Made by a program: the position numbers and the translations under genes. DNA of 64,000 nt from Escherichia phage p000v. Position 1 is the first letter of the stretch. The number at the start of each line of letters is the position of its first letter. The stretch lies in sequence record NC_055781.1; one strand, written 5' to 3'. This document shows positions 5,634 to 47,071 of the stretch, in pieces. The notes under the pieces were generated by a model that was given only the letters and a program-made list of their open reading frames with translations, had not been told where the DNA came from and searched no databases.

Positions 5634-5654
5634 GAATTGAGCCAAGAGGTACTT

Positions 5655-6212
5655 ATGACTGAACAAAAACCTAAAAATAACTATGTGAATAATAAAGAGC
5701 TTCTCGCCGCTATAATCGAGTGGAAAAAGGAGCTCTTAAATAATAAAGACCCAAACAAAATTATTCGTCAGAATGATACCATCGGTTTAGCAATTATGCT
5801 TATCGCCGAAGGCCTGTCCAAACGTTTCAACTTTTCAGGATATACCCAGTCTTGGAAGCAGGAGATGATTGCAGATGGGATTGAAGCCTCTATTAAGGGA
5901 CTTCATAATTTCGACGAAACTAAGTACAATAACCCACATGCATACATAACTCGAGCTTGTTTTAATGCTTTTGTCCAACGTATCAAAAAAGAACGTAAGG
6001 AAGTTGCAAAGAAATATAGTTACTTCGTTCATAATGTCTACGACAGTCATGACGATGATATGGTAGCGTTGGTAGATGAAACGTTTATTCAAGACATCTA
6101 CGATAAAATGACGCATTATGAAGAATCCGCTTATAAAGCTCCTGGGGCTGAAAAGAAGGAAGTTGTTAGCGATTCGCCTAGTTTGGATTTTTTATATGAG
6201 GATGACAATTGA
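5655..6212 (+). CDS. 55: late-transcription sigma factor gp55
   Basis: 185 aa (same length as T4 gp55); ATG at 5655 after GAGG RBS; position between the nrd cluster and gene 47. Confidence 0.85.
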
Positions 6213-13840: not shown

Positions 13841-16552
13841 ATGAAAGAATTTTACTTAACGGTTGAACAGATTGGTGATTCAATTTTTGAACGTTACATC
13901 GATTCTAATGGCCGTGAACGTACTCGTGAAGTAGAATATAAACCATCACTGTTTGCTCATTGTCCGGAAAGTCAGGCTACGAAATATTTTGATATCTACG
14001 GTAAGCCGTGTACTCGTAAACTATTCGCTAACATGCGTGATGCGTCTCAATGGATTAAACGCATGGAAGATATCGGACTTGAAGCACTTGGCATGGACGA
14101 TTTCAAATTAGCGTATTTGTCTGACACTTATAACTATGAAATCAAATACGACCATACAAAAATTCGTGTGGCTAACTTCGACATCGAAGTAACATCTCCG
14201 GATGGGTTCCCTGAGCCGTCACAAGCAAAACATCCTATTGATGCTATCACCCATTATGACTCAATTGACGACAGGTTCTACGTATTTGATCTATTGAATT
14301 CTCCATATGGTAATGTAGAAGAATGGTCTATTGAAATCGCTGCTAAGCTTCAAGAACAAGGTGGTGATGAAGTTCCATCTGAAATTATCGATAAAATCAT
14401 TTATATGCCGTTCGATAACGAAAAAGAATTGTTGATGGAATATCTCAACTTCTGGCAACAGAAAACTCCTGTCATTTTGACTGGATGGAACGTTGAGTCA
14501 TTTGATATTCCATATGTGTATAACAGAATCAAGAATATTTTTGGCGAATCTACTGCGAAACGTTTATCACCACATCGTAAAACTCGTGTTAAAGTTATCG
14601 AAAACATGTATGGTTCTCGTGAAATCATTACATTGTTCGGTATCTCTGTTCTTGATTACATTGACCTTTACAAAAAATTCTCTTTTACCAATCAACCGTC
14701 GTATTCTCTGGATTACATTTCAGAATTTGAATTGAACGTTGGTAAACTGAAATATGACGGCCCTATTTCTAAGCTTCGTGAAAGCAATCACCAACGATAT
14801 ATTTCTTATAACATCATCGACGTGTATCGTGTATTGCAAATTGATGCTAAGCGCCAGTTCATCAACTTGAGTTTGGACATGGGTTATTATGCTAAGATAC
14901 AGATTCAATCTGTGTTCAGCCCAATTAAAACATGGGATGCTATTATTTTTAATAGCCTTAAAGAGCAGAACAAGGTGATTCCACAAGGTCGTTCTCACCC
15001 GGTTCAACCTTATCCTGGCGCTTTTGTTAAGGAACCTATTCCAAATCGATACAAATATGTAATGAGTTTCGACCTTACATCTCTGTATCCAAGTATTATT
15101 CGCCAAGTGAATATTAGCCCAGAAACAATAGCAGGAACGTTTAAAGTAGCTCCATTGCATGATTATATTAACGCAATCGCTGAACGTCCTTCAGATGTGT
15201 ACAGCTGCTCTCCTAATGGCATGATGTATTATAAAGACCGTGATGGTGTAGTTCCAACTGAAATCACTAAGGTCTTTAATCAACGTAAAGAACATAAAGG
15301 TTACATGCTTGCAGCTCAACGTAATGGTGAAATAATTAAAGAGGCATTGCATAATCCTAATCTTTCTGTTGACGAACCATTAGATGTTGATTATCGTTTC
15401 GACTTCACTGATGAGATTAAAGAAAAGATTAAAAAGTTGTCTGCTAAATCTCTTAATGAAATGTTGTTCAGAGCTCAACGTACTGAAGTTGCAGGTATGA
15501 CTGCACAAATTAACCGTAAATTGCTTATCAACTCACTTTATGGTGCACTTGGAAACGTTTGGTTCCGTTATTACGATTTGCGTAATGCAACTGCAATCAC
15601 AACATTTGGTCAAATGGCTTTACAGTGGATTGAACGTAAAGTTAATGAATATCTGAATGAAGTTTGTGGTACAGAAGGTGAAGCTTTCGTTCTTTATGGT
15701 GATACAGACTCTATTTACGTATCTGCAGATAAAATTATTGATAAGGTTGGTGAATCTAAATTCCGTGATACCAACCATTGGGTGGACTTTTTAGATAAGT
15801 TTGCACGTGAACGTATGGAACCGGCTATTGATAGAGGTTTCCGTGAAATGTGTGAATACATGAACAATAAACAACACTTAATGTTCATGGACCGAGAAGC
15901 TATCGCTGGTCCTCCGCTCGGTTCTAAAGGTATTGGTGGATTCTGGACTGGTAAGAAACGTTATGCATTAAACGTGTGGGATATGGAAGGTACTCGTTAC
16001 GCTGAGCCTAAACTCAAAATCATGGGTCTAGAGACTCAGAAATCTTCGACCCCTAAAGCAGTACAGAAAGCTCTTAAAGAATGTATTCGTCGTATGCTTC
16101 AAGAAGGTGAAGAATCATTACAAGAATATTTTAAAGAGTTTGAAAAAGAATTCCGTCAATTGAATTATATTAGCATCGCGTCGGTATCTTCTGCGAATAA
16201 CATTGCTAAATATGACGTTGGTGGATTCCCTGGTCCTAAATGCCCGTTCCATATTCGTGGAATTCTGACATATAACAGAGCTATCAAAGGTAATATTGAT
16301 GCTCCACAAGTTGTAGAAGGCGAAAAGGTATACGTTCTGCCTTTACGTGATGGAAACCCGTTCGGTGATAAATGTATCGCATGGCCTTCTGGTACTGAAA
16401 TCACAGATTTAATTAAAGACGACGTACTTCATTGGATGGACTACACTGTTCTCCTTGAGAAGACATTTATTAAACCACTTGAAGGATTCACATCAGCAGC
16501 GAAACTCGATTACGAGAAGAAAGCATCTCTGTTCGATATGTTCGATTTTTGA
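13841..16552 (+). CDS. 43: DNA polymerase gp43 (family B, with 3'-5' exonuclease)
   Basis: 903 aa; exo motif FDIEV, polymerase motifs DLTSLYPSII, KLLINSLYG, YGDTDS; sequence matches RB69 polymerase as recalled. Confidence 0.97.
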   Translation: MKEFYLTVEQIGDSIFERYIDSNGRERTREVEYKPSLFAHCPESQATKYFDIYGKPCTRKLFANMRDASQWIKRMEDIGLEALGMDDFKLAYLSDTYNYEIKYDHTKIRVANFDIEVTSPDGFPEPSQAKHPIDAITHYDSIDDRFYVFDLLNSPYGNVEEWSIEIAAKLQEQGGDEVPSEIIDKIIYMPFDNEKELLMEYLNFWQQKTPVILTGWNVESFDIPYVYNRIKNIFGESTAKRLSPHRKTRVKVIENMYGSREIITLFGISVLDYIDLYKKFSFTNQPSYSLDYISEFELNVGKLKYDGPISKLRESNHQRYISYNIIDVYRVLQIDAKRQFINLSLDMGYYAKIQIQSVFSPIKTWDAIIFNSLKEQNKVIPQGRSHPVQPYPGAFVKEPIPNRYKYVMSFDLTSLYPSIIRQVNISPETIAGTFKVAPLHDYINAIAERPSDVYSCSPNGMMYYKDRDGVVPTEITKVFNQRKEHKGYMLAAQRNGEIIKEALHNPNLSVDEPLDVDYRFDFTDEIKEKIKKLSAKSLNEMLFRAQRTEVAGMTAQINRKLLINSLYGALGNVWFRYYDLRNATAITTFGQMALQWIERKVNEYLNEVCGTEGEAFVLYGDTDSIYVSADKIIDKVGESKFRDTNHWVDFLDKFARERMEPAIDRGFREMCEYMNNKQHLMFMDREAIAGPPLGSKGIGGFWTGKKRYALNVWDMEGTRYAEPKLKIMGLETQKSSTPKAVQKALKECIRRMLQEGEESLQEYFKEFEKEFRQLNYISIASVSSANNIAKYDVGGFPGPKCPFHIRGILTYNRAIKGNIDAPQVVEGEKVYVLPLRDGNPFGDKCIAWPSGTEITDLIKDDVLHWMDYTVLLEKTFIKPLEGFTSAAKLDYEKKASLFDMFDF

Positions 16553-16592: not shown

Positions 16593-17228
16593 ATGAAAAC
16601 TACACCAATCACTATCGCTATTGACGCAATCGTAAAACAAGCTTCATCTCTTGCCACTATGGCTAAAGTAATTAGTCAAAACTCTGCCCGATATAATGCT
16701 ATTCTTGAAACTCTTCGTCGCCCTGGACTGAGTAATTATGAAAGCCGAGTAATTATTACAGGTGTTGGTAAGAACGCTAATATCGCAACTAAAGCTTCCG
16801 AGACTTTTGCTTCACTAGGTATTCCTAGCATGTATTTGAACACCGGGCATTATTCTCATGGCGACGCAGGATTTATTGCACCTAATGATGTATTAGTTCA
16901 CATCAGTCGTTCTGGTAAGACTGAAGAAATGATAGGTGTTGCTAAACATCTTCGTATGATTCGTCCTCAGGTTAAACAGATTCTGTTACATTGTAACCCT
17001 GACATTCCGCAAGAATACGAAGCTCTTTTTGATTATACGTTCTGTACAGGCATCGCGGTAGAGGTTGATGAGAATTCTCTGGCTCCGACCATGTCCACTA
17101 CATTGTTGTTAGCGCTTATCGATACGTTTGCTATCAACCTTTCGTCTGAACGTGGATTTACCTCTAATGACTTCCTTAAGTTCCACCCTGGTGGTGCACT
17201 AGGTGCCATGTTACGAGGCGAACAATGA
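16593..17228 (+). CDS. SIS-domain sugar-phosphate isomerase, arabinose-5-phosphate isomerase-like (KdsD/GutQ N-domain type)
   Basis: 211 aa; VIITGVGKNANIA, HISRSGKTEE and C-terminal HPGGALG motifs typical of A5P isomerases; no CBS domains. Confidence 0.75.
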   Translation: MKTTPITIAIDAIVKQASSLATMAKVISQNSARYNAILETLRRPGLSNYESRVIITGVGKNANIATKASETFASLGIPSMYLNTGHYSHGDAGFIAPNDVLVHISRSGKTEEMIGVAKHLRMIRPQVKQILLHCNPDIPQEYEALFDYTFCTGIAVEVDENSLAPTMSTTLLLALIDTFAINLSSERGFTSNDFLKFHPGGALGAMLRGEQ

Positions 17229-17368
17229 AAGCAATAACAATAGGACTTTTACTATTGATGCTTGTCATGACTATCTACTGGAGCTTAACGGCTCCAGTAA
17301 TGATTCCGACTCTTATAATCGGATGGATTATGATTGGACTACAAGCAAAGTATGAATGCTTTAACTAG
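17225..17368 (+). CDS. small two-helix membrane peptide (47 aa)
   Basis: ATGA overlap with isomerase stop; MKAITIGLLLLMLVMTIYWSLTAPVMIPTLIIGWIMIGL; below ORF-track cutoff. Confidence 0.35.
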   Translation: MKAITIGLLLLMLVMTIYWSLTAPVMIPTLIIGWIMIGLQAKYECFN

Positions 17369-17381
17369 AATAGTGTACAAT
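17357..17381 (+). promoter_or_regulatory. MotA-dependent middle promoter upstream of the nucleotidyltransferase-kinase gene
   Basis: TGCTTTA box, 12-nt spacer, TACAAT -10; 28 nt before the ATG at 17410. Confidence 0.5.
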
Positions 17382-17409
17382 ACACCTACTTACCAATGAG
17401 GACTTCAAC

Positions 17410-19095
17410 ATGAAAAAAGCTGTTATTCTTGGTGCTGGACTGGCAACTCGTTTGTATCCAATAACGCACCATATTCCTAAGGTGCTTGTTAACTATAAAC
17501 AAGACACTATTCTGAGCAATTTGTATACAATTTATTCTGACCTTGGCGCAGATGAAATTATTGTAGTAGTTCATTCAAAATTTGCTGAAACTGTTCGAGC
17601 TTATTGCGAGCAAGAAGGGTTCAATGTGACTATTCGTACAGTTGATGAAGCGTATGGTTCTGCTTATGCTCTTGCTAAATTATACAAAGATTTAGATGGC
17701 CATAACGTAATTGTTAACTGGTGTGATATTATTCCTGACTTTGGTTCATGGTCTTGGAATGTTAACGCAATCTATGTTAAGGGTGATGAATGTCGATATA
17801 ATTTCGATGGTGAAAATATCACTAACGTAGGTTCAACAGGTGGTAATGTTGTAGGAATTTATCAGTTCAAAGACTGGGAATTCTACATGGGTTCTACTGA
17901 TGAGGAAATTCACGAATACTGCAAAGGTCGTGATTTCGTAGAATTCCTTTACGGCAGTGCATTCAATAAATCAGAGCTTATGAATCTAATTGATTTAGGT
18001 GATATGCCTAAACTTGAAAAGGCTCATGAAGTTCGTGAACTGAATCGTAGTTTTAATGCAGTTGAAATTGGCGAAGAAACTGTAACTAAATTCGCGTTAA
18101 CCGAACAAGGTCGAGCTCTTCAAAAAGATGAGATTTCATGGTATTTGAAAGTGAAATCAGATTCAGTTCCTCAGTTAGTTTCGGTAAATGAAAATAATTT
18201 TGAAATGGAACGTATTAAAGGTAAGCCGGCATTTGAATATATTAAATCCAAATCAAGTCTTGCTCGTCCACAAATTGTTGATGCAATTTTAGATGCACTG
18301 AAATTCAGCACGGACACTTATTTTGTAAGTCCTGAAACTGTTCGCCGTGATTTCACTAAAGAGTTCTATACGAAAGTTATTGATCGTTGTGAAAGCATTC
18401 AGCCATTGATTGATTCATTTGGTAAAATCACACGTGTGAACTACACTAAGATTGGACGTCTGAAGCCAATGTTGAAACAAGCTTTAGAACATCTTATTCG
18501 TTATCATAACCGTTCTCAGGGACAGTACTCTGTTATTCATGGTGACCCGAACTTCAGTAATACTATGATTACCGATAACGGCGAAGTCAAGTTTATCGAC
18601 CCTCGTGGATATTTTGGTGAAACCAAGATTTACGGGCCAAAATTGTATGATGAAGCTAAAGTGCTTTATGCTGTTTCAGGTTATGATGAATTCAATGCTA
18701 ATCCGACCTGGGGTCAGTTTACTATTGATGAAACAACTTGTAATGTGACTATTAACATCAATCCATTAGTTTACAAATATGGAAAGATGAGTTCGTTTAA
18801 CGAGTATCATCATTTGGCAGTAGCAATTATCTGGATTGCATTAGGTGGTTATTTCAAGAATAATCCACTTAAAGCGGTTGCCGCATATTATAAAGGTATG
18901 GAACTTCTGACTAAGCAATTACGTAACATGGGCCGTGTACTTCAAGACGGCTCTATTAGTTATGACGTAGCAGAACCTGTAACGGCTACTCTGATTACAA
19001 AAAATCCTGGTAAATGGGTACTAACTGATAAAGAAACTGGTGTTTCCTATCGTCCAATCGGCGGCGATATCACTCATCAATGGGAACGAATCTAA
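17410..19095 (+). CDS. bifunctional sugar-1-phosphate nucleotidyltransferase (N-terminal) / sugar kinase of APH-choline-kinase type (C-terminal)
   Basis: 561 aa; N-terminal KKAVILGAGLATRLYPIT (G-x-G-T-R-L-x-P-x-T nucleotidyltransferase signature); C-terminal HGDPNFSNTMI...IDPRG catalytic-loop-like motifs. Confidence 0.7.
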   Translation: MKKAVILGAGLATRLYPITHHIPKVLVNYKQDTILSNLYTIYSDLGADEIIVVVHSKFAETVRAYCEQEGFNVTIRTVDEAYGSAYALAKLYKDLDGHNVIVNWCDIIPDFGSWSWNVNAIYVKGDECRYNFDGENITNVGSTGGNVVGIYQFKDWEFYMGSTDEEIHEYCKGRDFVEFLYGSAFNKSELMNLIDLGDMPKLEKAHEVRELNRSFNAVEIGEETVTKFALTEQGRALQKDEISWYLKVKSDSVPQLVSVNENNFEMERIKGKPAFEYIKSKSSLARPQIVDAILDALKFSTDTYFVSPETVRRDFTKEFYTKVIDRCESIQPLIDSFGKITRVNYTKIGRLKPMLKQALEHLIRYHNRSQGQYSVIHGDPNFSNTMITDNGEVKFIDPRGYFGETKIYGPKLYDEAKVLYAVSGYDEFNANPTWGQFTIDETTCNVTININPLVYKYGKMSSFNEYHHLAVAIIWIALGGYFKNNPLKAVAAYYKGMELLTKQLRNMGRVLQDGSISYDVAEPVTATLITKNPGKWVLTDKETGVSYRPIGGDITHQWERI

Positions 19096-19481
19096 TGCAC
19101 CGTGTAGAAAACATGCTTAATCTTTGTTTTGATGTCGATGATTGTATAACAGAGTGGAATAACAATCGTGATTACGTGAACTTCAAACCAGACGTCGAAA
19201 TGGTGTCTGCCATTAATGCCCTGTATGATGCAGGGCATACCATAACGCTTTACACTGCCCGTGGTATGAAGTCGGTAGGTCCTGGTCGTATAGCAATTGA
19301 CATTCTCCCAAGTCTGATTCAGAACTTGGAAAACATTGGTTTGAAGTACCATAATTTGCTAACACATAAACCAGTATATGATTGGATTATCGACGACAAA
19401 GCTATGCGTCCTGACGAATTCAAAGCTCTTATGAATAAAGGCGAATTCGAAACATTTAAATCATATAAACCAAATCTATAA
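19095..19481 (+). CDS. small HAD-like phosphatase (putative)
   Basis: about 129 aa from ATG overlapping upstream stop (TAATG); FDVDDCIT resembles HAD motif I, WIIDDK resembles motif IV; capless. Confidence 0.45.
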   Translation: MHRVENMLNLCFDVDDCITEWNNNRDYVNFKPDVEMVSAINALYDAGHTITLYTARGMKSVGPGRIAIDILPSLIQNLENIGLKYHNLLTHKPVYDWIIDDKAMRPDEFKALMNKGEFETFKSYKPNL

Positions 19482-19538
19482 TAATTTAAGTAAGACCTGC
19501 AAAAACCATCGCATCAATTAACGCGAGATGCAAAAAAA

Positions 19539-20699
19539 ATGAATACTTTTAAAATCGGAACGAATTTTGATTTAGCTCTTCTTGATAAAATCGTAGAGCT
19601 CAATAAAACCTATCCTAATAGCTTGATAAACGAAGTATATGGCTCTACAAGAGAAATGGCTTTTGTAGCAGCCAGACCTGATTTTAGGCTTCCTGACGTT
19701 GACAAAAAGATGTTAGAAGACTACGTTAAACGTTGTAACGAATTAGGTATTTGCTTTAACTATACACTCAACACGATAAATCCTGGTTCAAAAAGAGAAC
19801 TAGTTGAGTGGAAGAAGAAAGCTATTCAGGATTATGTTCAGTATCTTTGGTCAATAGGCGTATGGCGTATTACTATCGCTAACCCTGTTGTTATGGAAAT
19901 TGTTCGTGAAGTCAATAAAGATATTGAGATTGAAGTTTCAACAATTCTACATGTCGATGCGGTAACTCAAATCAAATACTTACATGACCAATATAACATC
20001 AAAAAGGTCTGTTGCGGAATTCATAAGAACCGTTCAGTTTCTTTCCTGAAGCGTGCAGCAGAGTTTTGCAATAAGAACAATATAATATTTGAAGTTCTTG
20101 TAAATGAGTTCTGTTCTAATGCTGGTAAAGGGTATACAACACATTGTAGTTATCGTGACTCTTGCTATATTTTCCATAGTACTGATGTTACCGCTGATGA
20201 TGCTAAATCCTTAAATGGATATCCTATGCAGCACTGTATTAAAGCTCGTGATACAGACCCATTTAACTGGTTGAGAACTCGTTTTGTTCGTCCTCAAGAT
20301 TTGAAACTTTATAATGATATTGGTATCACTCAATTCAAAGTTTCAGGACGTACAGGTAGCACAGACTACATTTTGAAAGTTCTTGAAGCATACGCTTCTG
20401 AAAAGTTTGAAGGTAATTTGTTAGAACTGTGGAAGCCTTTAGAGACTATTTTCACTCTTGAAAATGAGACTGAGTTTTCACATACAGTAAATATTGAAAC
20501 CTCTTTGTTAGATGGCTTTTTAGAAAAAAGGTGGTTCAGACATCCAGATTTTGATTGTGCTAATGAAATCTGTGGGTCAACGTGTACATATTGTGAAAGG
20601 TATTATAAACGTCAATTATCTAAAAACGGGTTAGCAGAAAACTCCATATCTATTATTGATATAACTAACTCTGATGACGCTTTGAGGTACCCGGAATGA
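19539..20699 (+). CDS. Cys-rich protein, possible U32-family TIM-barrel/Fe-S enzyme
   Basis: 386 aa; motif order FKIGTNFD, NEVYGS, YTLNT, EVLVNEFCSNAGKGYTTHCSYRDSC resembles peptidase-U32 signatures by eye; C-terminal CANEICGSTCTYC Cys4 cluster. Confidence 0.35.
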   Translation: MNTFKIGTNFDLALLDKIVELNKTYPNSLINEVYGSTREMAFVAARPDFRLPDVDKKMLEDYVKRCNELGICFNYTLNTINPGSKRELVEWKKKAIQDYVQYLWSIGVWRITIANPVVMEIVREVNKDIEIEVSTILHVDAVTQIKYLHDQYNIKKVCCGIHKNRSVSFLKRAAEFCNKNNIIFEVLVNEFCSNAGKGYTTHCSYRDSCYIFHSTDVTADDAKSLNGYPMQHCIKARDTDPFNWLRTRFVRPQDLKLYNDIGITQFKVSGRTGSTDYILKVLEAYASEKFEGNLLELWKPLETIFTLENETEFSHTVNIETSLLDGFLEKRWFRHPDFDCANEICGSTCTYCERYYKRQLSKNGLAENSISIIDITNSDDALRYPE

Positions 20700-20935
20700 T
20701 TTCTAGAAAAAGTTTTAATTATAAACTTAACGAAGAGATTTTGACTATGAAACTGAACACTAACGAACAAATTCTTAAAAAGGCCCTTATGGGCCTGTTT
20801 GAAACCAAAGCGGCTAAAGTGATTAAAGAACCTGTTCAATTGGAATACTACGCTGATGCATTTCTTCATAGTGTTCTTGGAAGTATCGATGCTGAAGCTT
20901 TACGTTATATCAACATTGTCAAGAAATTCAAATAA
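20696..20935 (+). CDS. hypothetical protein
   Basis: 79 aa; ATGA overlap with upstream gene; not hydrophobic, so not Imm-like. Confidence 0.4.
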   Translation: MISRKSFNYKLNEEILTMKLNTNEQILKKALMGLFETKAAKVIKEPVQLEYYADAFLHSVLGSIDAEALRYINIVKKFK

Positions 20936-20958
20936 GCTTTACGAATTGAGTATATAAT
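20935..20958 (+). promoter_or_regulatory. middle-promoter-like element upstream of gene 42
   Basis: AGCTTTA box, 11-nt spacer, TATAAT; 20 nt before the ATG at 20978. Confidence 0.4.
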
Positions 20959-20977
20959 AAATTGTATTGAGGTAAAC

Positions 20978-21694
20978 ATGGGAAAACATAACACAATGAA
21001 ATATATCAAAGCCGCAGATTTTCAAACCGCATTTAAAGCAGTCAATCGTGAAATTTTAGAAAACCCGGAATTCGTAACTGATTCTCGTATTGGACGTTGT
21101 AATGAAATTGGGTCTATGACAGTAGTTGTTGACACTCCATCATCATTCAAAATGACCGACCCACGTATTAACCGCATCTCTTATGAATATGCCGAAGACT
21201 TCTGGAAGTTTATGATTTCTGGTGGTACCAACGCAGAAGAAGCGTTTAAGGCATATCCTAATGTCGCTAAATTTATTTCTAAACCAAAATCAGATGTTTT
21301 GCCGGCGAACTTCAACACTTTCTATGGTCCTCGCATTGCGGCCCAATTACCAACTCTTCTAAAAGAACTTAAAGAGAAGCCTAACTCCCGAAGAGTTGTG
21401 TTCCAAATTCTAGAAAGTTCTGATCAGGCTTTGCTTGATTCGGACGAAACACTTGAATATCCATGTACTGACTCAGTAACTTATTATATTCGTGATGGTA
21501 AGCTTTATACCCACTGTCATATGCGTTCTCAGAACTGTGCTGTTGTTATGCAGTTGGATTTTTATCTCCAAGGAAAATTACTTCATTATATCGCTAACGA
21601 ATGCGGTGTAGAAGTTGGTGATTATACTCATACCATGGTAAGTGCCCATGTGTTTGAACGTGATTTTGATTATGTTAAAGGATTCCTTGACTAA
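20978..21694 (+). CDS. 42: dCMP hydroxymethylase gp42 (thymidylate-synthase fold)
   Basis: 238 aa, close to T4 gp42 length; assigned by position after gene 43 and size; no catalytic motif checked by eye. Confidence 0.85.
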   Translation: MGKHNTMKYIKAADFQTAFKAVNREILENPEFVTDSRIGRCNEIGSMTVVVDTPSSFKMTDPRINRISYEYAEDFWKFMISGGTNAEEAFKAYPNVAKFISKPKSDVLPANFNTFYGPRIAAQLPTLLKELKEKPNSRRVVFQILESSDQALLDSDETLEYPCTDSVTYYIRDGKLYTHCHMRSQNCAVVMQLDFYLQGKLLHYIANECGVEVGDYTHTMVSAHVFERDFDYVKGFLD

Positions 21695-22593
21695 TGGCTA
21701 TTTTCCGCGTACCAATCTTGAGTATGCGGTCTTATGAAACTGGACAGTATGCTATCCTTAAGGATGGCAACTTCCAACTTCATTTGCACCGTGCTAATCC
21801 GGGTGATGTGATTACATATCCACGTAATGCATCTGATATTAAAGAATGCGAACGTCTTTTCCCAGAATTTAAGTTTGTTCCATTATGGTATAAAGATAAC
21901 GCGTATAACACTCGTAAATATTTCTGGACTGAAAATGAATTTGTGGTTGATTCATTAATTGATTATTATGATTGTGATTTTCTAATCACAGATATCACTG
22001 GTTATGGTGGCGCTTTTGATGTGGAATTCAATTTCAATATCACTGCAGACCCTAATAAACCACGTTTTTATATTGATGAATTCTTAAAAACCGACATGTT
22101 GTCTGTTAATCGTTCACTTCAAACTACTGTGTTGAATGAACGTCAAAAAGAAGTGCTGGTTAACGCAGGTGCAGATGGTAATAAGATTATCGTAACGCAG
22201 AAAGTTATACGTCCTTCCATCATGCAGCGTCTTGTAGGTGATTTGGCTCCTATTCATCTAGATGGTATTTTTCATCCATTTCGAATTAGTGACCCATGTT
22301 ATCGTTTTGAACAAGTGGTTGAATGTGCAATTCAATTAGGTCAACCGCTTTATATAACCGATCCAAATAATAGCTTCGACAGAAATAAGTATCCTGAAGA
22401 AGCGCTGATTCGAATTTTTAAACCAACTAAAACTGAGTACTATCAAATTCTTAAAGGACGTCCGAAAATTCAATATTTCGAAAATCCTGAAGAAGTATTC
22501 CATCCAGGTCTTGGTGAGTTCATCTACTTTAATGCTTTAATTTCTTCGCCGTATAATATACCTAAATACGAAGATGTCGTAATCGAGGAATAA
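21694..22593 (+). CDS. hypothetical protein occupying the T4 beta-glucosyltransferase slot
   Basis: 299 aa; TAATG overlap with gene 42 stop; no resemblance to T4 beta-gt seen by eye. Confidence 0.45.
   Translation: MAIFRVPILSMRSYETGQYAILKDGNFQLHLHRANPGDVITYPRNASDIKECERLFPEFKFVPLWYKDNAYNTRKYFWTENEFVVDSLIDYYDCDFLITDITGYGGAFDVEFNFNITADPNKPRFYIDEFLKTDMLSVNRSLQTTVLNERQKEVLVNAGADGNKIIVTQKVIRPSIMQRLVGDLAPIHLDGIFHPFRISDPCYRFEQVVECAIQLGQPLYITDPNNSFDRNKYPEEALIRIFKPTKTEYYQILKGRPKIQYFENPEEVFHPGLGEFIYFNALISSPYNIPKYEDVVIEE
22533..22557 (+). promoter_or_regulatory. MotA-dependent middle promoter inside the 3' end of the 299-aa gene
   Basis: TGCTTTA box, 12-nt spacer, perfect TATAAT; 38 nt before the ATG at 22595. 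Confidence 0.5.
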
Positions 22594-22594
22594 A

Positions 22595-23143
22595 ATGGCT
22601 AAAATTATTTTAGTAGATGGCCCGGATAATGCCGGTAAAACAACTTTCATTAATGACATAATGGAAATTAGTGAAAGATATGTAAAGATTGATTTCCCTA
22701 AACGAACAGTTGATGGACGTTTCGATGTTAAGTCTCGAAATGAAGTTGGCTGTTTCGAAACGATGTTGAATTATTTAGACCCTACTAAGATTTATCTGTT
22801 AGACCGTGGATATATTAGTAACTGGGTTTATGGACGTATTCGACAAGATGCGGACTCGATTCTTGACGTTTATGAACAGGACTATGTTCGTCTTTGCCAA
22901 AACCATGATGTGTTCACAATTATTTTAACACGTAACGAAATGACTGAAAGTTTTGAAGACGACCTTATTACTTTGTCTTCATTCGGTTTTAATACAGTCA
23001 TTTCACATTTTGAAGAGTTTGCAATTCATAACAAAATCCAAACATATCAATTACTTAATCATGATGGTGCTAACAAAGTTATAGGATTTAATGCAAGCGA
23101 ACGTAATGGTTTGATTACAGAAATCATCAAATGGGCTCGTTAA
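22595..23143 (+). CDS. P-loop nucleotide/nucleoside kinase-like protein (thymidylate-kinase-like fold)
   Basis: 182 aa; Walker A VDGPDNAGKTT and DR motif LLDRGYISNWVYG. Confidence 0.55.
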   Translation: MAKIILVDGPDNAGKTTFINDIMEISERYVKIDFPKRTVDGRFDVKSRNEVGCFETMLNYLDPTKIYLLDRGYISNWVYGRIRQDADSILDVYEQDYVRLCQNHDVFTIILTRNEMTESFEDDLITLSSFGFNTVISHFEEFAIHNKIQTYQLLNHDGANKVIGFNASERNGLITEIIKWAR

Positions 23144-23242: not shown

Positions 23243-24415
23243 ATGTCTGATTTAAAATCTCGTCTGATTAAAGCTTCTACTTCTAAAATGACTGCAGACT
23301 TGACTAAGTCTAAGCTGTTTAATAATCGTGATGAAGTCCCTACTCGTATTCCGATGTTGAATATTGCACTAGGTGGTGCTCTGAATGCAGGATTGCAATC
23401 AGGCTTGACTATTTTTGCTGCACCTTCTAAACACTTTAAAACGCTGTTTGGACTAACTATGGTTGCAGCGTATATGAAGAAATATAAAGATGCAATCTGT
23501 TTGTTCTATGACTCAGAATTTGGTGCTTCAGAATCTTATTTTCGTTCAATGGGTGTTGATTTAGACCGTGTAGTTCATACACCAATTCAGTCCGTCGAAC
23601 AACTTAAAGTTGATATGACTAATCAGCTTGACGCGATTGAACGCGGTGATAAAGTTATTATCTTTATCGATTCAATCGGTAATACTGCATCTAAGAAAGA
23701 AACCGAAGATGCATTGAATGAGAAAGTCGTAGGTGATATGTCTCGTGCTAAGGCACTTAAATCTCTGTTCCGTATTGTGACCCCGTATCTGACTATTAAA
23801 GATATTCCGTGTGTTGCAATCAACCATACAGCAATGGAAATCGGCGGACTATATCCTAAAGAGATTATGGGTGGTGGTACAGGTATTCTTTATTCTGCCA
23901 ACACGGTATTTTTTATCTCTAAACGTCAGGTTAAAGAAGGTACAGAATTGACCGGTTATGACTTCACGTTGAAAGCAGAAAAATCTCGTACAGTTAAAGA
24001 GAAATCTACTTTCCCGATCACGGTTAATTTCGATGGTGGTATCGACCCATTCAGTGGCTTGCTAGAAATGGCAACTGAAATCGGTTTTGTGGTTAAGCCT
24101 AAAGCTGGTTGGTATGCTCGTGAATTCCTTGACGAAGAAACAGGTGAAATGATTCGTGAAGAAAAATCATGGCGTGCTAAAGCTACTGATTGTGTAGAAT
24201 TCTGGGGACCTTTGTTTAAACACAAACCTTTCCGTGATGCGATTGAAATGAAATATAAGCTAGGCGCTATCTCGTCTATTAAAGAAGTTGATGACGCTGT
24301 TAACGACCTTATTAATTGCAAAGCAACAACTAAAGTTCCGGTTAAAGCTTCTGATGCTCCGTCTGCAGCAGATATAGAAAACGACCTTGACGAAATGGAA
24401 GATTTCGATGAATAA
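23243..24415 (+). CDS. uvsX: RecA-like recombinase UvsX
   Basis: 390 aa; N-terminus MSDLKSRLIKASTSK matches T4 UvsX as recalled; RecA-fold ATPase. Confidence 0.95.
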   Translation: MSDLKSRLIKASTSKMTADLTKSKLFNNRDEVPTRIPMLNIALGGALNAGLQSGLTIFAAPSKHFKTLFGLTMVAAYMKKYKDAICLFYDSEFGASESYFRSMGVDLDRVVHTPIQSVEQLKVDMTNQLDAIERGDKVIIFIDSIGNTASKKETEDALNEKVVGDMSRAKALKSLFRIVTPYLTIKDIPCVAINHTAMEIGGLYPKEIMGGGTGILYSANTVFFISKRQVKEGTELTGYDFTLKAEKSRTVKEKSTFPITVNFDGGIDPFSGLLEMATEIGFVVKPKAGWYAREFLDEETGEMIREEKSWRAKATDCVEFWGPLFKHKPFRDAIEMKYKLGAISSIKEVDDAVNDLINCKATTKVPVKASDAPSAADIENDLDEMEDFDE

Positions 24416-40791: not shown

Positions 40792-42612
40792 ATGATTAAA
40801 AATGAAATTAAGGTATTGTCGGATGTAGAACATATTAAGAAACGTAGTGGCATGTATATTGGTTCTTCTGCTAAAGAAGCCCACGAGCGTTTTTTGTTTG
40901 GTAAATATCAACAAGTTGAATATGTTCCTGGTCTGGTTAAATTAATCGATGAGATTATTGACAACTCGGTTGATGAAGCTATTCGTACATCATTTAAGTT
41001 TGCAAATAAAATTGATGTGCAAATTAAAAATAATCAAGTTTCGGTGGAAGATAACGGACGTGGTATTCCTCAAGGTTTAGTTACCGACCAAACAGGTGAA
41101 CAAATTCCTGGGCCTGTAGCAGCCTGGACTATTCCAAAGGCCGGTGGTAACTTTGGTGATGACTCTGAACGTAAGACTGGTGGTATGAACGGCGTCGGGA
41201 GTAGTTTAACTAATATCTTCTCTACGTTGTTTACAGGCATCACGTCAGATGGCGAAAATGAAATCACTGTTAACTGTTCAAACGGAATGGAAAACAAATC
41301 ATGGTCTTCTAAGAAATCTAAAGGTAAAGGCACTAAAGTAATCTTCACTCCTGATTTCACTTCATTTGAAGAGCATAATTTATCTCAAATTTATTTAGAT
41401 ATTACTTTAGACCGACTTCAAACATTGGCAGTCGTTTATCCTGATATCAAGTTCACATTTAATGGTAAAAAGGTCGATGGTAATTTTAAACGATTTGCTA
41501 AACAATTTGGTGAAGATAACATCATTCAAGAAAATGATAAAGTCTCTATAGCATTCACAACATCACCAGATGGCTTCCGTCATTTAACTTATGTGAATAA
41601 CATCCATACTAAAAATGGTGGACATCATGTTGAATGTGTAATGGACGATATCTGCGAACATCTTTTGCCGGGTATTAAAAAGAAATATAAGGGTATTGAA
41701 GTCACTAAAGCTCGTGTTAAAGAATGTCTCACAATGTTGATGTTTATTAGAGACATGAGCAACATGCGTTTTGATTCTCAGACTAAAGAACGTTTAACGT
41801 CAACGTACGGTGATATTCGTAATCATATCCAATTAGATGCTAAGAAAATTGCTCAGGCACTTCTTAAAAATGAAGCCTTGATTATGCCTATTGTTGAAGC
41901 AGCATTAGCTCGTAAATTGGCGGCAGAAAAGGCTGCAGAAACTAAAGCAGCTAAAAAGGCAACTAAAGCTAAGGTTCATAAGCATATTAAAGCTAACCAA
42001 TGTGGTAAAGATGCAGATACGACATTGTTTTTAACAGAAGGTGATTCGGCAATTGGATATCTCATTGATGTTCGTGACCGTGAACTACATGGTGGATTCC
42101 CATTACGTGGTAAGGTGATGAATAGCTGGGGTATGTCATATGCTGATATGATGAAGAACAAAGAGCTCTTTGATATCTGTGCTATCACGGGTCTTATTCT
42201 TGGTGAAAAAGCAGAGAATACGAACTATCGTAATATTGCAATTATGACCGATGCCGATCATGACGGCCTTGGAAGTATTTATCCTGCTTTGCTTGCTTTC
42301 TTTAGTAATTGGCCTGAATTGTTTGAACAAGGACGTATTCGCTTTGTTAAAACACCTGTAATTATTGCACAAATTGGCAAAACTCAAAAATGGTTTTATA
42401 CTGTAGCTGAGTATGAAGAAGTTAAAGATACACTGCCTAAGCATAGTATTCGATACATCAAGGGATTGGGCTCACTTCAGCGGGATGAATATAAAGAAAT
42501 GATTCAAAACCCTGTGTACGACGTAGTTAAACTTCCTGAAAATTGGAAAGAACTATTTGAAATGCTCATGGGTAACGACCCTGAACTCCGTAAAGATTGG
42601 ATGCTAGGATAA
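40792..42612 (+). CDS. 39: DNA topoisomerase II large subunit gp39 (GyrB-like), uninterrupted
   Basis: 606 aa; GHKL ATPase region (IDEIIDNSVDEA) and TOPRIM (LFLTEGDSA, IMTDADHDG); no split into 39 and 60. Confidence 0.9.
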   Translation: MIKNEIKVLSDVEHIKKRSGMYIGSSAKEAHERFLFGKYQQVEYVPGLVKLIDEIIDNSVDEAIRTSFKFANKIDVQIKNNQVSVEDNGRGIPQGLVTDQTGEQIPGPVAAWTIPKAGGNFGDDSERKTGGMNGVGSSLTNIFSTLFTGITSDGENEITVNCSNGMENKSWSSKKSKGKGTKVIFTPDFTSFEEHNLSQIYLDITLDRLQTLAVVYPDIKFTFNGKKVDGNFKRFAKQFGEDNIIQENDKVSIAFTTSPDGFRHLTYVNNIHTKNGGHHVECVMDDICEHLLPGIKKKYKGIEVTKARVKECLTMLMFIRDMSNMRFDSQTKERLTSTYGDIRNHIQLDAKKIAQALLKNEALIMPIVEAALARKLAAEKAAETKAAKKATKAKVHKHIKANQCGKDADTTLFLTEGDSAIGYLIDVRDRELHGGFPLRGKVMNSWGMSYADMMKNKELFDICAITGLILGEKAENTNYRNIAIMTDADHDGLGSIYPALLAFFSNWPELFEQGRIRFVKTPVIIAQIGKTQKWFYTVAEYEEVKDTLPKHSIRYIKGLGSLQRDEYKEMIQNPVYDVVKLPENWKELFEMLMGNDPELRKDWMLG

Positions 42613-43409
42613 TGAATTATCGTAAAATTTATGATAAACTTATCGCTGCGGCTAAAAACCGCAGCACTATTCCTAATTATACTGAAACTCACCATATTTT
42701 GCCTAAATCTATGGGTGGGAGTAATGCTAAATCAAATCTAGTTAAAATGACCCCTAGAGAGCATTTTATCGCCCATTTATTGCTTTATAAAATTCATAAG
42801 AACCGTTCTATGCTTATGGCTATTAGAGCTTTTTACATGGGAGCTAGAAATTCTAGAGATTATGATTGGCTTAAACAAGAATTCTCTAAAGAGCACTCTA
42901 GATTTATGAAAGAATGGATTGCTAAAAATGGCAACCCATTTAAAGGTAAAAAACATACTAAAGCAACAAGAGAATTAATGTCACATATTGCTTCACAACG
43001 TATAGGCGAATTAAATCCGTTTTATGGTAAAACTCATACGCAAGAAGCAATAGATAAAATAATACAGGCCAACAAGTTATCTTGGGAGAATGGGCGAAAA
43101 GCACCTGTAAAAACAAAAGAACACCAGGATAAAATAACTAAATCAAGAATGGAAACATTTAAAACAAAAGGATTTAAACCATACACTCCTAGGTCGGAAG
43201 AAACTAAAGCTAAGACTAGAGAGTTGTATAAATCTAAATATGAAAGAAGGCCTATAAGAATCACAAGTGTAAAAACAGGTGAAACTATTGATTTTAACTA
43301 TCTTTATGAATTAAGGGAGTATTTAGGTATAGGGTCTTCTAATATATTGAAAGCATTAAATAATCCTAACAGAACCTGCAAAGGTTATAAAATGTGTTGG
43401 ATGTCCTAA
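42612..43409 (+). CDS. HNH homing endonuclease with NUMOD3 repeats (freestanding mobile gene)
   Basis: HNH motif ETHHILPKSMGGSNAKSNLVKMTPREH; repeats NPFKGKKHTKATRE and NPFYGKTHTQEAIDKI; ATG overlaps gene 39 stop. Confidence 0.8.
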   Translation: MNYRKIYDKLIAAAKNRSTIPNYTETHHILPKSMGGSNAKSNLVKMTPREHFIAHLLLYKIHKNRSMLMAIRAFYMGARNSRDYDWLKQEFSKEHSRFMKEWIAKNGNPFKGKKHTKATRELMSHIASQRIGELNPFYGKTHTQEAIDKIIQANKLSWENGRKAPVKTKEHQDKITKSRMETFKTKGFKPYTPRSEETKAKTRELYKSKYERRPIRITSVKTGETIDFNYLYELREYLGIGSSNILKALNNPNRTCKGYKMCWMS

Positions 43410-43430
43410 GCTCCTTCGGGAGCTTCATTT
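43408..43430 (+). terminator. intrinsic terminator (AAGCTCC-ttcg-GGAGCTT then T-rich)
   Basis: UUCG hairpin right after the HNH gene. Confidence 0.5.
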
Positions 43431-43451
43431 TAATTTTAATAAGGCTTAATT

Positions 43452-44552
43452 ATGAAAGTTATGTTTATCCCATCTCGCGCAGTCCCATTTAACCCAGAAC
43501 GTGTACAAGGTGGTCTTGAAGCAGTACATTTAAATGTATTGAAATATCTTGTGTCCATCGGTGCTGATATTGATTATATCGGCTTTGATAATGACACGTT
43601 TGGTGACTGGAAGGTTAATCATCATCCTGTTGGTCATCTGACTAAATTCAGTCTAGGTATGAGTTATACTATGGCTCGTAAGATTGTTGAACTAGCCGGC
43701 ATCCATGAATACGATTTTGTTGTTACTATGGAACCGACTAAACTAACCGTTCAGGCAATTAAAGACGCAGGTCTCTCTAAAGTTCATAAGAATTTTATGG
43801 CAACACCATTTGAACCGGTATCTCGTGGCATTGTTCAAATTTGGGACCAGACTATTCAAATTCATAAGAATGGTGGTAAGAGTTATGCTCCTACTAAAGC
43901 CTTCCGTGAATTTGAACGCAAATATTGTTATATGACTTCAGGTCTGACTGACAAAATTGATTATGATTATTGGCGAGCAAATCCGTTGTTTGAAGCCGAA
44001 GATTATCCGGTTATTTGTTTGACTGAAAAGCCAGAAGTTCTTCCGGCGACGGATCTGATTATTAGTGCACAACGTTATGACACTAAAATGCGTCGTACTG
44101 ATGTTGCTCTTGAAGCGATTAAAGCACTAGGCGAAAATGGTGCAGGATACTGTCCTAGTAAATGGGCACCACCAGCTAAATATCCTGTTATTATTGATGC
44201 TCCACACAGCGAAATCATGGAACGTCTTAAAACAGCTAAAGCACTTATCAATACGTGTCCTGACACGGGTACGGTAGAGAATAGTTCTATTGAAGCCATC
44301 TCTAAAGGTGTCCCTGTGATTCAGTTAGTTTTTAAGGATTATCCGCACGCGACATTCGAATATGACCCAGATACTGTGCGTGTAGAAATTGATTCCTCTA
44401 CTCCTAAGAAAGAAGTAGTTGCGCTTTACACAAAAGCTGTATTAGAATTCACTGACACATACGAAGCTCGAGTTAAACGTGCTGAAGCAGTATGGAAGAA
44501 GTATAACCGAGATGCAGTTGTTGCGATGTGGGATAAAATCTTCACAGCGTAA
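43452..44552 (+). CDS. GT-B fold glycosyltransferase (GT4-like), candidate DNA hydroxymethylcytosine arabinosyltransferase
   Basis: 366 aa; N-terminal MKVMFIPS...GGLEAVHLNVLKYL and C-terminal TGTVENSSIEAISKGVPVIQ resemble the GT4 E-x7-E/PVI motif. Confidence 0.65.
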   Translation: MKVMFIPSRAVPFNPERVQGGLEAVHLNVLKYLVSIGADIDYIGFDNDTFGDWKVNHHPVGHLTKFSLGMSYTMARKIVELAGIHEYDFVVTMEPTKLTVQAIKDAGLSKVHKNFMATPFEPVSRGIVQIWDQTIQIHKNGGKSYAPTKAFREFERKYCYMTSGLTDKIDYDYWRANPLFEAEDYPVICLTEKPEVLPATDLIISAQRYDTKMRRTDVALEAIKALGENGAGYCPSKWAPPAKYPVIIDAPHSEIMERLKTAKALINTCPDTGTVENSSIEAISKGVPVIQLVFKDYPHATFEYDPDTVRVEIDSSTPKKEVVALYTKAVLEFTDTYEARVKRAEAVWKKYNRDAVVAMWDKIFTA

Positions 44553-44644: not shown

Positions 44645-44845
44645 ATGAGAACATATAACGTGGACTTGGAACTTTTTGATAAAGCAGTGCTCCGGGAATT
44701 CCGGCTTATCCAAAGATTTTTTGATATCGAATCAGCAGAGTCCTTTAAAGAACGCTTTAAAGAAATTCGATATAAAATACAAACCGATACAGCTACTAAA
44801 GAAGAACTTCTTGAAGTAGCAGAAATTTTTAAACGTAACTTGTGA
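44645..44845 (+). CDS. hypothetical protein (rIIA.1 position)
   Basis: 66-aa ORF with GAAGAGAATATT RBS. Confidence 0.4.
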   Translation: MRTYNVDLELFDKAVLREFRLIQRFFDIESAESFKERFKEIRYKIQTDTATKEELLEVAEIFKRNL

Positions 44846-44857
44846 TGAGAGAAAAAT

Positions 44858-47071
44858 ATGATTATTGAAACGGCTAAAGAAACGATTATTGGTTCAGGCG
44901 GTAAGAGCACAGCATTCACTATTCAAGGCAATAGCAAAGTTTATAAGATTTTGTCTAATGACCTTTATACAAACAAAGAATTGGCTTGTGTACGTGAATT
45001 AATTACAAACTGTATCGATGGACAAATTCTTAACGGTTGCACTGATAAGTTTATTGTTCAGGCTCCAGGTCGTTTAGACCCACGCTTTGTAGTTCGAGAC
45101 TTTGGTCCTGGTATGAGCGATTTCACCATTAGAGGTAATGACGAAGAGCCAGGAATCTATAACTCATATTTTGCTTCAACTAAAACATCGAGTAACGATT
45201 TCATCGGTGGATTCGGACTCGGTTCTAAAGCTCCGCTAGCATATACCGATACGTTTAACCTTACGTCTTATCACAACGGTGAAGTTCGTGGTTACGTAAT
45301 CTACCAAGATGACACAGGTCCACAAATTAAGCCGACCTTCGTAGATAAGATGGGTCCTGATGACCGTACGGGTGTAGAAGTAGTTGTACCGGTTAACCCG
45401 GAAGATTTTGAAAAGTTCGCATCCGAAATTGCATATGTTATGCGTCCTCTAGGTGATATTGCAGAAGTTCGTGGTGTTAAAGATATTAAATACTTCCCGG
45501 AATTTGACGATGTATATTTGGCCAAGGAAGCTCCATGGGGTGAACGTGGTAATATCATGGCTGTTTATGGCGGTATTGTATATCCAATCGGAAGCGTTAT
45601 TAAAGAACAAACATGGATGATGACACGATGCACTACAGCTTATATTAAATTCCCTATGGGTGAACTAGATGTAGCTCCGTCTCGTGAAGCATTGTCATTT
45701 GATAAACGTACGGTAGCAAATATCCATAAACGCGTTGCAGAAATCGATGCTAAATTGTTCGCTGAAGATTCTAAGAAATGGATTGATTGTAAATACCCAC
45801 GTCATGTGTTCCGTGAAATTGATTCTCTTGGCTATACCGCTCGTAAATACATGGAAAAGGCTGGGTCTAATATTGAATCACTGAAATACTCTAAAGAACA
45901 ACTAACTTATTCTGAGTTGTACAAACGTTTTAAAATGGGGCCTGAGTGGTGTAATCTTGGTGTCGTATACGATATCGTTGAATCCCCTCGTCTTCGTCGT
46001 ATTCGTGAAAGTGGTAGCTCAACGGCAACCATTTCAATTAACAGTCTGATTGGCATTAACATTAAAAACGTTGAAATTGTTATTGACGACGTTAAGGGAC
46101 GCGTTCCATTAATGCGAGCTCTTAATTCAATTGAAATGTCTAAAGACGAGGTTAAATTAACTGGTAAAGTTCCACGCGGTTTTGGTAAAAGCGTACTATT
46201 CGTTGACCCTACAGACGAAGATGCAATGAAACTTCTGGAACGCCTTAAAGTTATCTTTGATGGCGACAACATTAACATGTACAAGACTTCAGAGCTTTTA
46301 CAAATCGTTAAGCCATGGATTGAAGTCAGGAAACGGACTAATGAGCCTCGTCCTAAATCGCCAAGTGCTCATCGATTCTTTAAGAATGAAAACGATGTTT
46401 GGGTATCAGAAGACCTCTTTATTCCGGCAAGTGAAGCAGATGAAATCCAAGGTTATGCTATAGTTCGTAATCGTTCTAATGCTGAATGTCTTGACGCAGA
46501 TAAAGGTTGGTTGAACTATGACTCCAATTTCTTGACCCGTATTGCTGATTTGTCAGGTATTAAAGAGTTCACTGTAGTTCGTCCACAGATTGCTAAGAAA
46601 GTTCGTAAACTTGGTGAAGTAGAATGTTTGTTCGAAAAATCAATTAATGACTATATTACGCTAATCGATAAAGTGGATTATGATGAGTATGTATCACCAA
46701 GTCGTAGAGCACAGCCTTATTTGAATCATATTACTCGTAATGAAGAGCTTAACTTCCTTAGTAAGTATTTTAGCTCTAAGAACAAAGAAATCAGTAAAGA
46801 CTTTGCAAAACTCTCAACAGTAAATAATCGTTGGGGATGGAATCGATTCGCAGGTGCTACTAATACAGACATGAATAAGAAGTTAGAACTGTGTGCTAAA
46901 ATTTTCGATAAGCTTAAAGATAATGCTTACGATAATGATGATAAAATGGTTATTGAATTCGAAACCAATTATCATATTGTGTCAGAATACATGGGACGAC
47001 GTGGTACTCTTTCCAAAGAACAGGTCGCTCAAATCGTTAAATTCATGAAGGCCGTGGAAGCGGCCAAATAA
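44858..47071 (+). CDS. rIIA: rIIA protein
   Basis: 737 aa; N-terminal GHKL-ATPase-like region; immediately upstream of rIIB. Confidence 0.9.
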   Translation: MIIETAKETIIGSGGKSTAFTIQGNSKVYKILSNDLYTNKELACVRELITNCIDGQILNGCTDKFIVQAPGRLDPRFVVRDFGPGMSDFTIRGNDEEPGIYNSYFASTKTSSNDFIGGFGLGSKAPLAYTDTFNLTSYHNGEVRGYVIYQDDTGPQIKPTFVDKMGPDDRTGVEVVVPVNPEDFEKFASEIAYVMRPLGDIAEVRGVKDIKYFPEFDDVYLAKEAPWGERGNIMAVYGGIVYPIGSVIKEQTWMMTRCTTAYIKFPMGELDVAPSREALSFDKRTVANIHKRVAEIDAKLFAEDSKKWIDCKYPRHVFREIDSLGYTARKYMEKAGSNIESLKYSKEQLTYSELYKRFKMGPEWCNLGVVYDIVESPRLRRIRESGSSTATISINSLIGINIKNVEIVIDDVKGRVPLMRALNSIEMSKDEVKLTGKVPRGFGKSVLFVDPTDEDAMKLLERLKVIFDGDNINMYKTSELLQIVKPWIEVRKRTNEPRPKSPSAHRFFKNENDVWVSEDLFIPASEADEIQGYAIVRNRSNAECLDADKGWLNYDSNFLTRIADLSGIKEFTVVRPQIAKKVRKLGEVECLFEKSINDYITLIDKVDYDEYVSPSRRAQPYLNHITRNEELNFLSKYFSSKNKEISKDFAKLSTVNNRWGWNRFAGATNTDMNKKLELCAKIFDKLKDNAYDNDDKMVIEFETNYHIVSEYMGRRGTLSKEQVAQIVKFMKAVEAAK

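Follow-up and report, generated by a model that had tools for sequence, protein, structure and literature searches.

Escherichia phage p000v carries, between gene 39 and the rIIA region, an open reading frame for a 366-aa protein. This locus raises two questions: is the protein one of the enzymes that place arabinose on phage DNA, and if so, which sugar of the chain does it add? The gene lies in the 64,000-nucleotide stretch of record NC_055781.1 that was analyzed here, referred to below as the window. A first-pass annotation, made from the sequence, had taken the protein for a GT-B glycosyltransferase and for the best candidate for the transfer of arabinose onto hydroxymethylcytosine. It had also described both slots of the T4 glucosyltransferase genes as empty, and it mentioned an arabinosyltransferase candidate proposed near rIIA in phage RB69.

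The chemistry of the modified base has since been revised. Two studies published in 2026 found that the DNA of RB69 and of Mosigvirus NP carries arabinose ether-linked to C5 through 5-hydroxycytosine, and both call the earlier hydroxymethyl assignment erroneous (PMC13326640, PMC13390438). The RB69 nucleoside was identified by NMR as beta-D-Araf-(1->3)-alpha-D-Araf-5-hydroxy-2'-deoxycytidine, and experiments showed that RB69 gp48 makes 5hodCMP (PMC13326640). As for the transferases, Thomas et al. (2018) proposed RB69 ORF003c as an arabinosyltransferase; its similarity to T4 alpha-gt was seen only at the remote HHpred level, with 10% identity to the a-gt homolog of phage G (PMC6024577). More recently, gp46:47 of RB69 was proposed for the first sugar and gp3 ('beta-arabinosyltransferase 2') for the second (PMC13326640, Table 1 and section 26). 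The role of gp3 is given there as an explicit proposal, without the mark 'confirmed experimentally'.

Results

The 366-aa gene (43452..44552, plus strand) starts with ATG, and an AAGG ribosome-binding site (43441..43444, plus strand) can be read from the sequence 7 nt before it. Its placement between gene 39 and rIIA is real, with a homing endonuclease gene and rIIA.1 also intervening. Gene 39 (40792..42612) encodes a fused 606-aa topoisomerase subunit with HATPase_c, DNA_gyraseB, Toprim and TOPRIM_C domains. The HNH/NUMOD3 homing endonuclease (about 42612..43409, plus strand; Pfam NUMOD3 and HNH, PHROG 655) is inserted between gene 39 and the 366-aa gene. It is present in only 26 phage records, is absent from RB69 and is not part of the modification system. 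Downstream of the 366-aa gene are rIIA.1 (44645..44845; Pfam T4_RIIA1), a 737-aa ORF that holds the rIIA position of RB69 by synteny (44858..47071) and for which a Pfam search gave no match, and, where rIIB would be expected, a 315-aa ORF. The idea that the 366-aa ORF replaces T4 gene 60 was considered and rejected, since gene 39 is here fused and full-length, with Toprim and TOPRIM_C reaching residue 604. A consensus scan located a terminator-like hairpin, AAGCTCC-TTCG-GGAGCTT (43408..43425, plus strand), between the homing endonuclease ORF and the 366-aa gene. The hairpin is weak evidence because promoter and terminator sites around the gene were no more numerous than in shuffled sequence. 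Yersinia phage fPS-90 has an annotated terminator at the equivalent place.

Copies of the gene, 90-99% identical in DNA, were found in 154 phage records, two of which are short and partial. In LR027387 about 22 nucleotides differ (98.0% DNA identity) but only one residue of the protein (99.7% identity), and the gene is under purifying selection. RB69 ORF003c/gp3 (RB69p003, NP_861693.1) is identical to the p000v protein at 363 of 366 residues, and it is the candidate near rIIA that the first-pass annotation mentioned (PMC6024577). A profile search of the PDB with the family returned entry 9iqz at E 5e-196 with 98% identity. The spread over 154 records, the pattern of substitutions in LR027387 and the existence of this crystallized ortholog together establish the ORF as a real gene. 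Foldseek, run with a model of the protein, found the same entry, titled 'phage HY126 glycosyltransferase', along with 9ir0, 'phage HY126 glycosyltransferase with UDP', which is also 98% identical; the second title implies that the HY126 ortholog binds UDP. Both entries were released on 2025-07-16. Entry 9iqz contains at least eight chains (chain H), and its depositors' molecule name includes the phrase 'subfamily 4-like N-terminal domain'. The likely source of the two structures is He et al. (2026, Nat Chem Biol, doi 10.1038/s41589-026-02150-z), a study which, as described in PMC13326640, dealt with phage HY126 and reported the crystal structure of its ThyA homolog. The gene is therefore already known: it was proposed in 2018, its ortholog has been crystallized, and it has been placed in the arabinosylation pathway. 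Most of the 154 database copies nonetheless still bear the label 'hypothetical protein', and a few carry the mistaken name 'DNA alpha-glucosyltransferase'.

Sequence profiles say little about the protein. PHROG 8302 ('unknown function') matches residues 1-366 at E 3e-222, no Pfam family was found at E<=1, and NCBIfam gave no match. The family has few members: five related clusters came from a word-indexed search of 5.8 billion proteins, and eleven from an HMMER profile search run exhaustively against 1.84 billion representatives. Since Pfam and NCBIfam do not recognize the protein and its PHROG family carries no function, its assignment to GT-B rests on structure. On that footing the GT-B character originally claimed is borne out, the 98%-identical solved ortholog being a named glycosyltransferase with UDP. 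Our AlphaFold2 model (pLDDT 60.9, built on a six-sequence alignment) shows strand and helix elements alternating in two halves, and it was used solely for structure search and general fold class, with no claim made at residue level. The search gave 272 PDB matches at E<=0.001, and among the matches listed almost all are GT-B enzymes. After the HY126 entries, the nearest are the UDP/GDP-sugar enzymes BshA, PimA, WlaC and MshA. These bacterial GT4-type proteins, the closest structures outside phages, share the N-terminal glycine loop and the C-terminal 'E-A-x-x-x-G-x-P-V' helix with the p000v protein, but identity is only about 12-15% and HMMER profiles do not connect them. A profile search of the PDB with the 366-aa family returned no entry other than 9iqz at E<=10, and the Pfam domains of CAZy GT4 sequence membership (Glycos_transf_1, Glyco_trans_4-like N domain) were not found in the protein.

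Across the wider family G20, G142, R208, R214, N267, T268, T274, E281, G286-V-P-V, E303 and R340 are invariant, and G21 is nearly so. These residues would form a GT-B donor site, in which the glycine loop is joined by a pair of basic residues that contact the diphosphate and by a glutamate that contacts the ribose. Thomas et al. had aligned G20 and 'Arg-207' with the ligands of the beta-phosphate in T4 alpha-gt (PMC6024577). The second Glu of the E-x7-E motif (E281) is invariant and is set in the usual E-A-x-x-x-G-x-P-V sequence. The first, present in the bacterial GT4-type motif, is replaced in this family: Gly273 occupies the position eight residues upstream, and E276 is about 90% conserved.

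A complete RB69-type arabinosylation cluster (16593..23143) lies between the genes for DNA polymerase (13841..16552) and uvsX (23243..24415), its genes being 96-99% identical to their RB69 counterparts and all on the plus strand. It begins with a SIS-domain arabinose-5-phosphate isomerase (16593..17228; Pfam SIS, 96.2% identity to RB69p055), which would catalyze the first step to the UDP-arabinose donor. Next is the intact ortholog of RB69 gp52:53 (17410..19095), a bifunctional protein with an N-terminal nucleotidyltransferase (Pfam NTP_transferase) and a kinase-like C-terminus whose kinase-family matches are weak and below threshold. Work on HY126 AfhE indicates that proteins of this type make the UDP-arabinofuranose donor (PMC13326640, section 27). 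A HAD-like sugar phosphatase follows (19080..19481; PHROG 1238, 98.4% identity to RB69p051), its role being taken from HY126 AfhF (PMC13326640), and then a U32-peptidase-family protein (19539..20699; Pfam Peptidase_U32 with a weak UbiU match, 99.2% identity to RB69p050). The thymidylate-synthase homolog in the 'gene 42' position (20978..21694; Pfam Thymidylat_synt) is identical to RB69 gp48 at 235 of 238 residues and is predicted to be the 5-hydroxy-dCMP synthase. The published 'D169N' column was not recovered in a three-sequence alignment that included E. coli ThyA, which gave Asn at 167 and Ala at 169, so this assignment rests on the 99% identity to gp48. The last gene of the cluster encodes a thymidylate-kinase-like nucleotide kinase (22595..23143; PHROG 761, 98.4% identity to RB69p045).

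Examination of the two T4 glucosyltransferase slots gave different results. The alpha-gt slot is indeed empty, as no ORF longer than 107 aa is present between gp55 (5637..6212; PHROG 234) and gene 47 (start 7200; Metallophos). The beta-gt slot, between 42 and uvsX, was wrongly described as empty. A compact GT-B glycosyltransferase of 299 aa is encoded there (21694..22593, plus strand), directly after the gene-42 homolog and in the position of T4 beta-gt, and its model has a pLDDT of 95.3. Pfam and NCBIfam gave no match to this protein, and PHROGs gave only families of 'unknown function'. In RB69 its counterpart is ORF046c+047c (98.3% identity), of which the p000v protein is the intact version; PMC13326640 describes the two ORFs as one gene, gp46:47, split by a sequencing error and encoding the first arabinosyltransferase. 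The 299-aa protein is likewise proposed here to be the first, base-proximal enzyme. A sequence relationship between the 299-aa and 366-aa families was looked for, and none was detectable.

The distribution of the two families bears on the division of labor between them. Members of the 299-aa family were found in 347 phage records. The hosts span at least ten genera, among them Escherichia, Acinetobacter, Klebsiella, Serratia, Enterobacter, Proteus, Yersinia and Shewanella, and of the two families this one alone is common to all arabinosylating phages. In annotated records its gene adjoins that of the ThyA homolog, whereas the 366-aa gene does not. The 366-aa family is found in 210 phage records: the 154 of Mosigvirus type, where each has a single copy; 55 of Acinetobacter phages, where two copies lie side by side; and one Tegunavirus. 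In the phage collection searched, no member was found in Thanatos or in Klebsiella, Serratia or Proteus phages, and about 137 records besides Thanatos have the 299-aa enzyme without a member of the 366-aa family. Within the Mosigvirus group the two enzymes occur together at about 1:1 (152 records with the Mosigvirus-type 299-aa enzyme, 154 with the 366-aa enzyme).

This distribution can be compared with published chemistry. [quoted passage not shown] The copy number of the 366-aa family thus tracks the length of the arabinose chain, with none in Thanatos, one in Mosigvirus and two in the Acinetobacter phages. In phage DLP1 the two paralogs, ADLP1_075 and ADLP1_074, are 43% and 41% identical to the p000v protein over their full length. 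They lie inside the arabinosylation cluster beside the kinase gene, and the order of the genes matches them to DLP3 gp77 and gp76. When combined in vitro, DLP3 gp76 and gp77 use UDP-Araf to attach a third arabinose to the DNA of RB69 (PMC13326640, section 26). Each was inactive alone and both were required, and individual DLP3 transferases were inactive on DNA containing only 5hoC (PMC13326640).

Discussion

Our analysis indicates with high confidence that the 366-aa protein is a DNA arabinosyltransferase of some step. We further consider it probable that the protein is a chain-extending DNA arabinofuranosyltransferase which makes the second, beta-(1->3) link. This reading is based on the published proposal, the phyletic pattern, the agreement between copy number and chemistry, and the activity of the DLP3 homologs. 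The earlier designation as best candidate for placing arabinose on hydroxymethylcytosine thus stands in part. The protein does belong to the arabinosylation system as a GT-B enzyme, but the base is 5-hydroxycytosine and the 299-aa enzyme is the better candidate for base-proximal transfer. A hydroxymethylcytosine acceptor is outdated because of the chemistry established for RB69 and NP and the near identity of the p000v ThyA homolog to RB69 gp48.

The pathway reported for RB69-type phages can be applied to p000v as follows. The flavin-dependent ThyA homolog (20978..21694) would make 5-hydroxy-dCMP, which would enter the DNA, while the genes at 16593..19481 would supply UDP-D-arabinofuranose. 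On newly replicated phage DNA, the 299-aa transferase would attach the first, alpha-linked arabinofuranose to the 5-hydroxyl. The 366-aa enzyme, presumably a soluble GT-B protein that binds the UDP-sugar in the cleft between two Rossmann-like domains, would then add the second arabinofuranose to the first through a beta-(1->3) bond, giving the di-arabinosyl-5-hydroxycytosine that is dominant in Mosigvirus DNA. The longer glycan may give more protection against host defenses that target DNA. We infer from these comparisons that the 366-aa enzyme would carry out the second step alone, and the linkage it makes and the benefit against defenses are suggested in the same manner. A Bas46 mutant without 'arabinosyltransferase Aat' is reported to be sensitive to a plasmid-borne defense, according to the account of Mahler et al. 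(2025) given in PMC13216743.

The order of the two enzymes could be reversed, with the 366-aa protein acting first on 5-hydroxycytosine and the 299-aa protein adding the second sugar. This is what was originally proposed for RB69 ORF003c, whose profile similarity to T4 alpha-gt fits such a role (PMC6024577), and the in vitro data of PMC13326640 assign the first step to no enzyme. Indeed, even the first transfer was not reconstituted there, because the individual DLP3 transferases did not act on DNA with 5hoC only. Against this stand mono-arabinosylated Thanatos and the roughly 137 other records that carry the 299-aa enzyme and lack the 366-aa family, the synteny with the ThyA homolog that is confined to the 299-aa gene among the two families in annotated records, and the action of the Acinetobacter paralogs on DNA that is already arabinosylated. 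We therefore find a reversed order quite improbable. Two independent enzymes may also be too simple a picture. Because the DLP3 paralogs worked only as a pair, the single-copy 366-aa enzyme may need a partner, and it could be competent only as an obligate oligomer or in a hetero-complex with the 299-aa transferase. The inactivity of gp76 and gp77 when assayed singly (PMC13326640, section 26) and the eight or more chains in 9iqz are consistent with this, but in Mosigvirus a single copy of the gene lies about 21 kb from that of the 299-aa enzyme, with no detectable sequence relationship between the two families. Such a dependence seems unlikely to us.

That the link with DNA modification is coincidental, and that the enzyme glycosylates a lipid of the host envelope, a protein, or a small metabolite of thiol or pterin-like type, would accord with the small-molecule and lipid acceptors of its closest structural relatives outside phages (BshA, PimA and a tetrahydrobiopterin glucosyltransferase). 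Within the phage collection, however, members of the family turn up in Mosigvirus-type phages and in those of Acinetobacter, where the arabinosylation cluster is present as well. The Acinetobacter genes lie inside that cluster and the homologs modify DNA in vitro, so a target other than DNA is very hard to credit. Taken together, these considerations favor a chain-extending DNA arabinofuranosyltransferase.

One feature of this system is puzzling. Both transferases most resemble GT4-type GT-B enzymes of the retaining kind, and both arabinose linkages are presumably drawn from one UDP-Araf donor, yet the RB69 linkages are opposite in anomeric configuration: alpha to the base and beta-1,3 between the sugars, with the bond made by the 366-aa product's RB69 counterpart proposed to be beta (PMC13326640). 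The fold thus does not reveal which of the two bonds either enzyme makes, and one of the enzymes would have to depart from the usual correlation between fold and mechanism. We tentatively raise two possibilities, though we would not wager on them: the 366-aa family, with its altered E-x7-E motif (Gly273, E276), could combine a GT4-like scaffold with an inverting mechanism, or it could be a portable chain-extension module that is exchanged to tune glycan length against defenses.

The p000v enzyme can be placed among known systems. It shares its length, its position beside rIIA.1 and the accompanying arabinose and 5-hydroxycytosine cluster with RB69 gp3 and the HY126 enzyme; three substitutions separate it from gp3, and the RB69 locus is without the homing endonuclease gene. 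DLP3 gp77 and gp76 (the counterparts of the DLP1 paralogs) belong to the same family and keep the G-G loop, R208, R214 and E281, and they move arabinofuranose from UDP-Araf to arabinosylated DNA (PMC13326640). They differ in being encoded in tandem, in the cluster by the kinase gene, and in being needed jointly for the third arabinose, whereas p000v has a single copy about 21 kb from its cluster and the DNA of its phage group stops at two arabinoses. T4 alpha-gt (GT72) and beta-gt (GT63) are likewise UDP-sugar-dependent GT-B enzymes that act post-replicatively on C5-modified cytosine and serve against restriction. In contrast to the system described here, their sugar is glucose rather than D-arabinofuranose, their base is hydroxymethylcytosine rather than 5-hydroxycytosine, and their loci differ. 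They have no sequence homology to the 366-aa protein that is detectable with Pfam, and the acceptor of the latter is likely a sugar hydroxyl and not the base. Compared with the bacterial GT4-type enzymes, the 366-aa enzyme is distinguished by an acceptor that is borne on DNA.

In conclusion, the value of this work for p000v is a correct annotation, and the biology is that of the publications of 2018-2026. Arabinosylated 5-hydroxycytosine, a recently defined hypermodification of DNA, protects T4-like phages against restriction enzymes, DNA glycosylases and some types of CRISPR-Cas, and leaves them open to type IV systems, BrxU among them. Whether a transferase adds the first sugar or sets the length of the chain matters for predicting defense evasion in therapeutic phages, for phage genome engineering and for the glycosylation of DNA in vitro.

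Discussion

The gene for the 299-aa transferase (21694..22593, + strand), the proposed first DNA arabinosyltransferase, and the gene for the 561-aa nucleotidyltransferase and kinase-like protein (17410..19095, + strand) are each a single unbroken ORF in the window. In the RB69 reference record, by contrast, the same two genes are broken into ORF046c/047c and ORF052c/053c. The unbroken ORFs agree with the view that errors in sequencing produced the splits in RB69 (PMC13326640). The 299-aa transferase gene also lies in a closely spaced group (20978..23143, + strand) with the genes for a ThyA homologue and a kinase. The transferase ATG (21694) and the stop codon of the ThyA homologue overlap by one base, the last of the stop codon, and the kinase gene begins 2 nt past the transferase stop (22593/22595). 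This close spacing suggests that translation of the three genes is coupled.

The 366-aa GT-B enzyme, proposed to extend the arabinose chain, is labeled "hypothetical protein" in most of its Mosigvirus copies among the matches listed. A few records, namely those of Escherichia phage HX01 and several Acinetobacter phages, label it "DNA alpha-glucosyltransferase", a name that is incorrect given the chemistry of these phages. When the phage collection was queried with window 43452..44549, a homologue with less than 60% identity was found in one record whose organism name starts with "Tegunavirus". This suggests that the extension enzyme has spread sporadically outside Mosigvirus and the Acinetobacter phages. 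Among the matches listed for both enzymes, Yersinia phage TG1-type records matched the 299-aa enzyme only.

Gene 39 and the 366-aa transferase gene are separated by an inserted HNH/NUMOD3 homing endonuclease gene (42612..43409, + strand). With the TTG listed as its start (42597), this ORF would overlap the last part of gene 39; translation more likely begins at the ATG at 42612. RB69 lacks the endonuclease, and only 26 phage records in the phage collection carry it. One carrier, Yersinia phage fPS-90 (Tequatrovirus), has a copy with 99.5% nucleotide identity, likewise located directly behind its gene 39, indicating that the endonuclease moved recently between genera that differ in DNA modification.

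The 5-hydroxycytosine/arabinose cluster also encodes a U32-peptidase-family protein (19539..20699, + strand; RB69p050 orthologue) with a weak NCBIfam match to UbiU. It is kept at 80% identity or more in 220 phage records, and the Shewanella phage Thanatos-2 protein is 82% identical to that of the window, whereas the 299-aa transferases share only 48%. The Acinetobacter phages in the phage collection lack it. The U32 family includes O2-independent hydroxylases, namely UbiU/V, RlhA (5-hydroxycytidine in rRNA) and TrhP (5-hydroxyuridine in tRNA). The U32-family protein might provide an oxygen-independent route to 5-hydroxycytosine beside the O2/flavin-dependent ThyA homologue.
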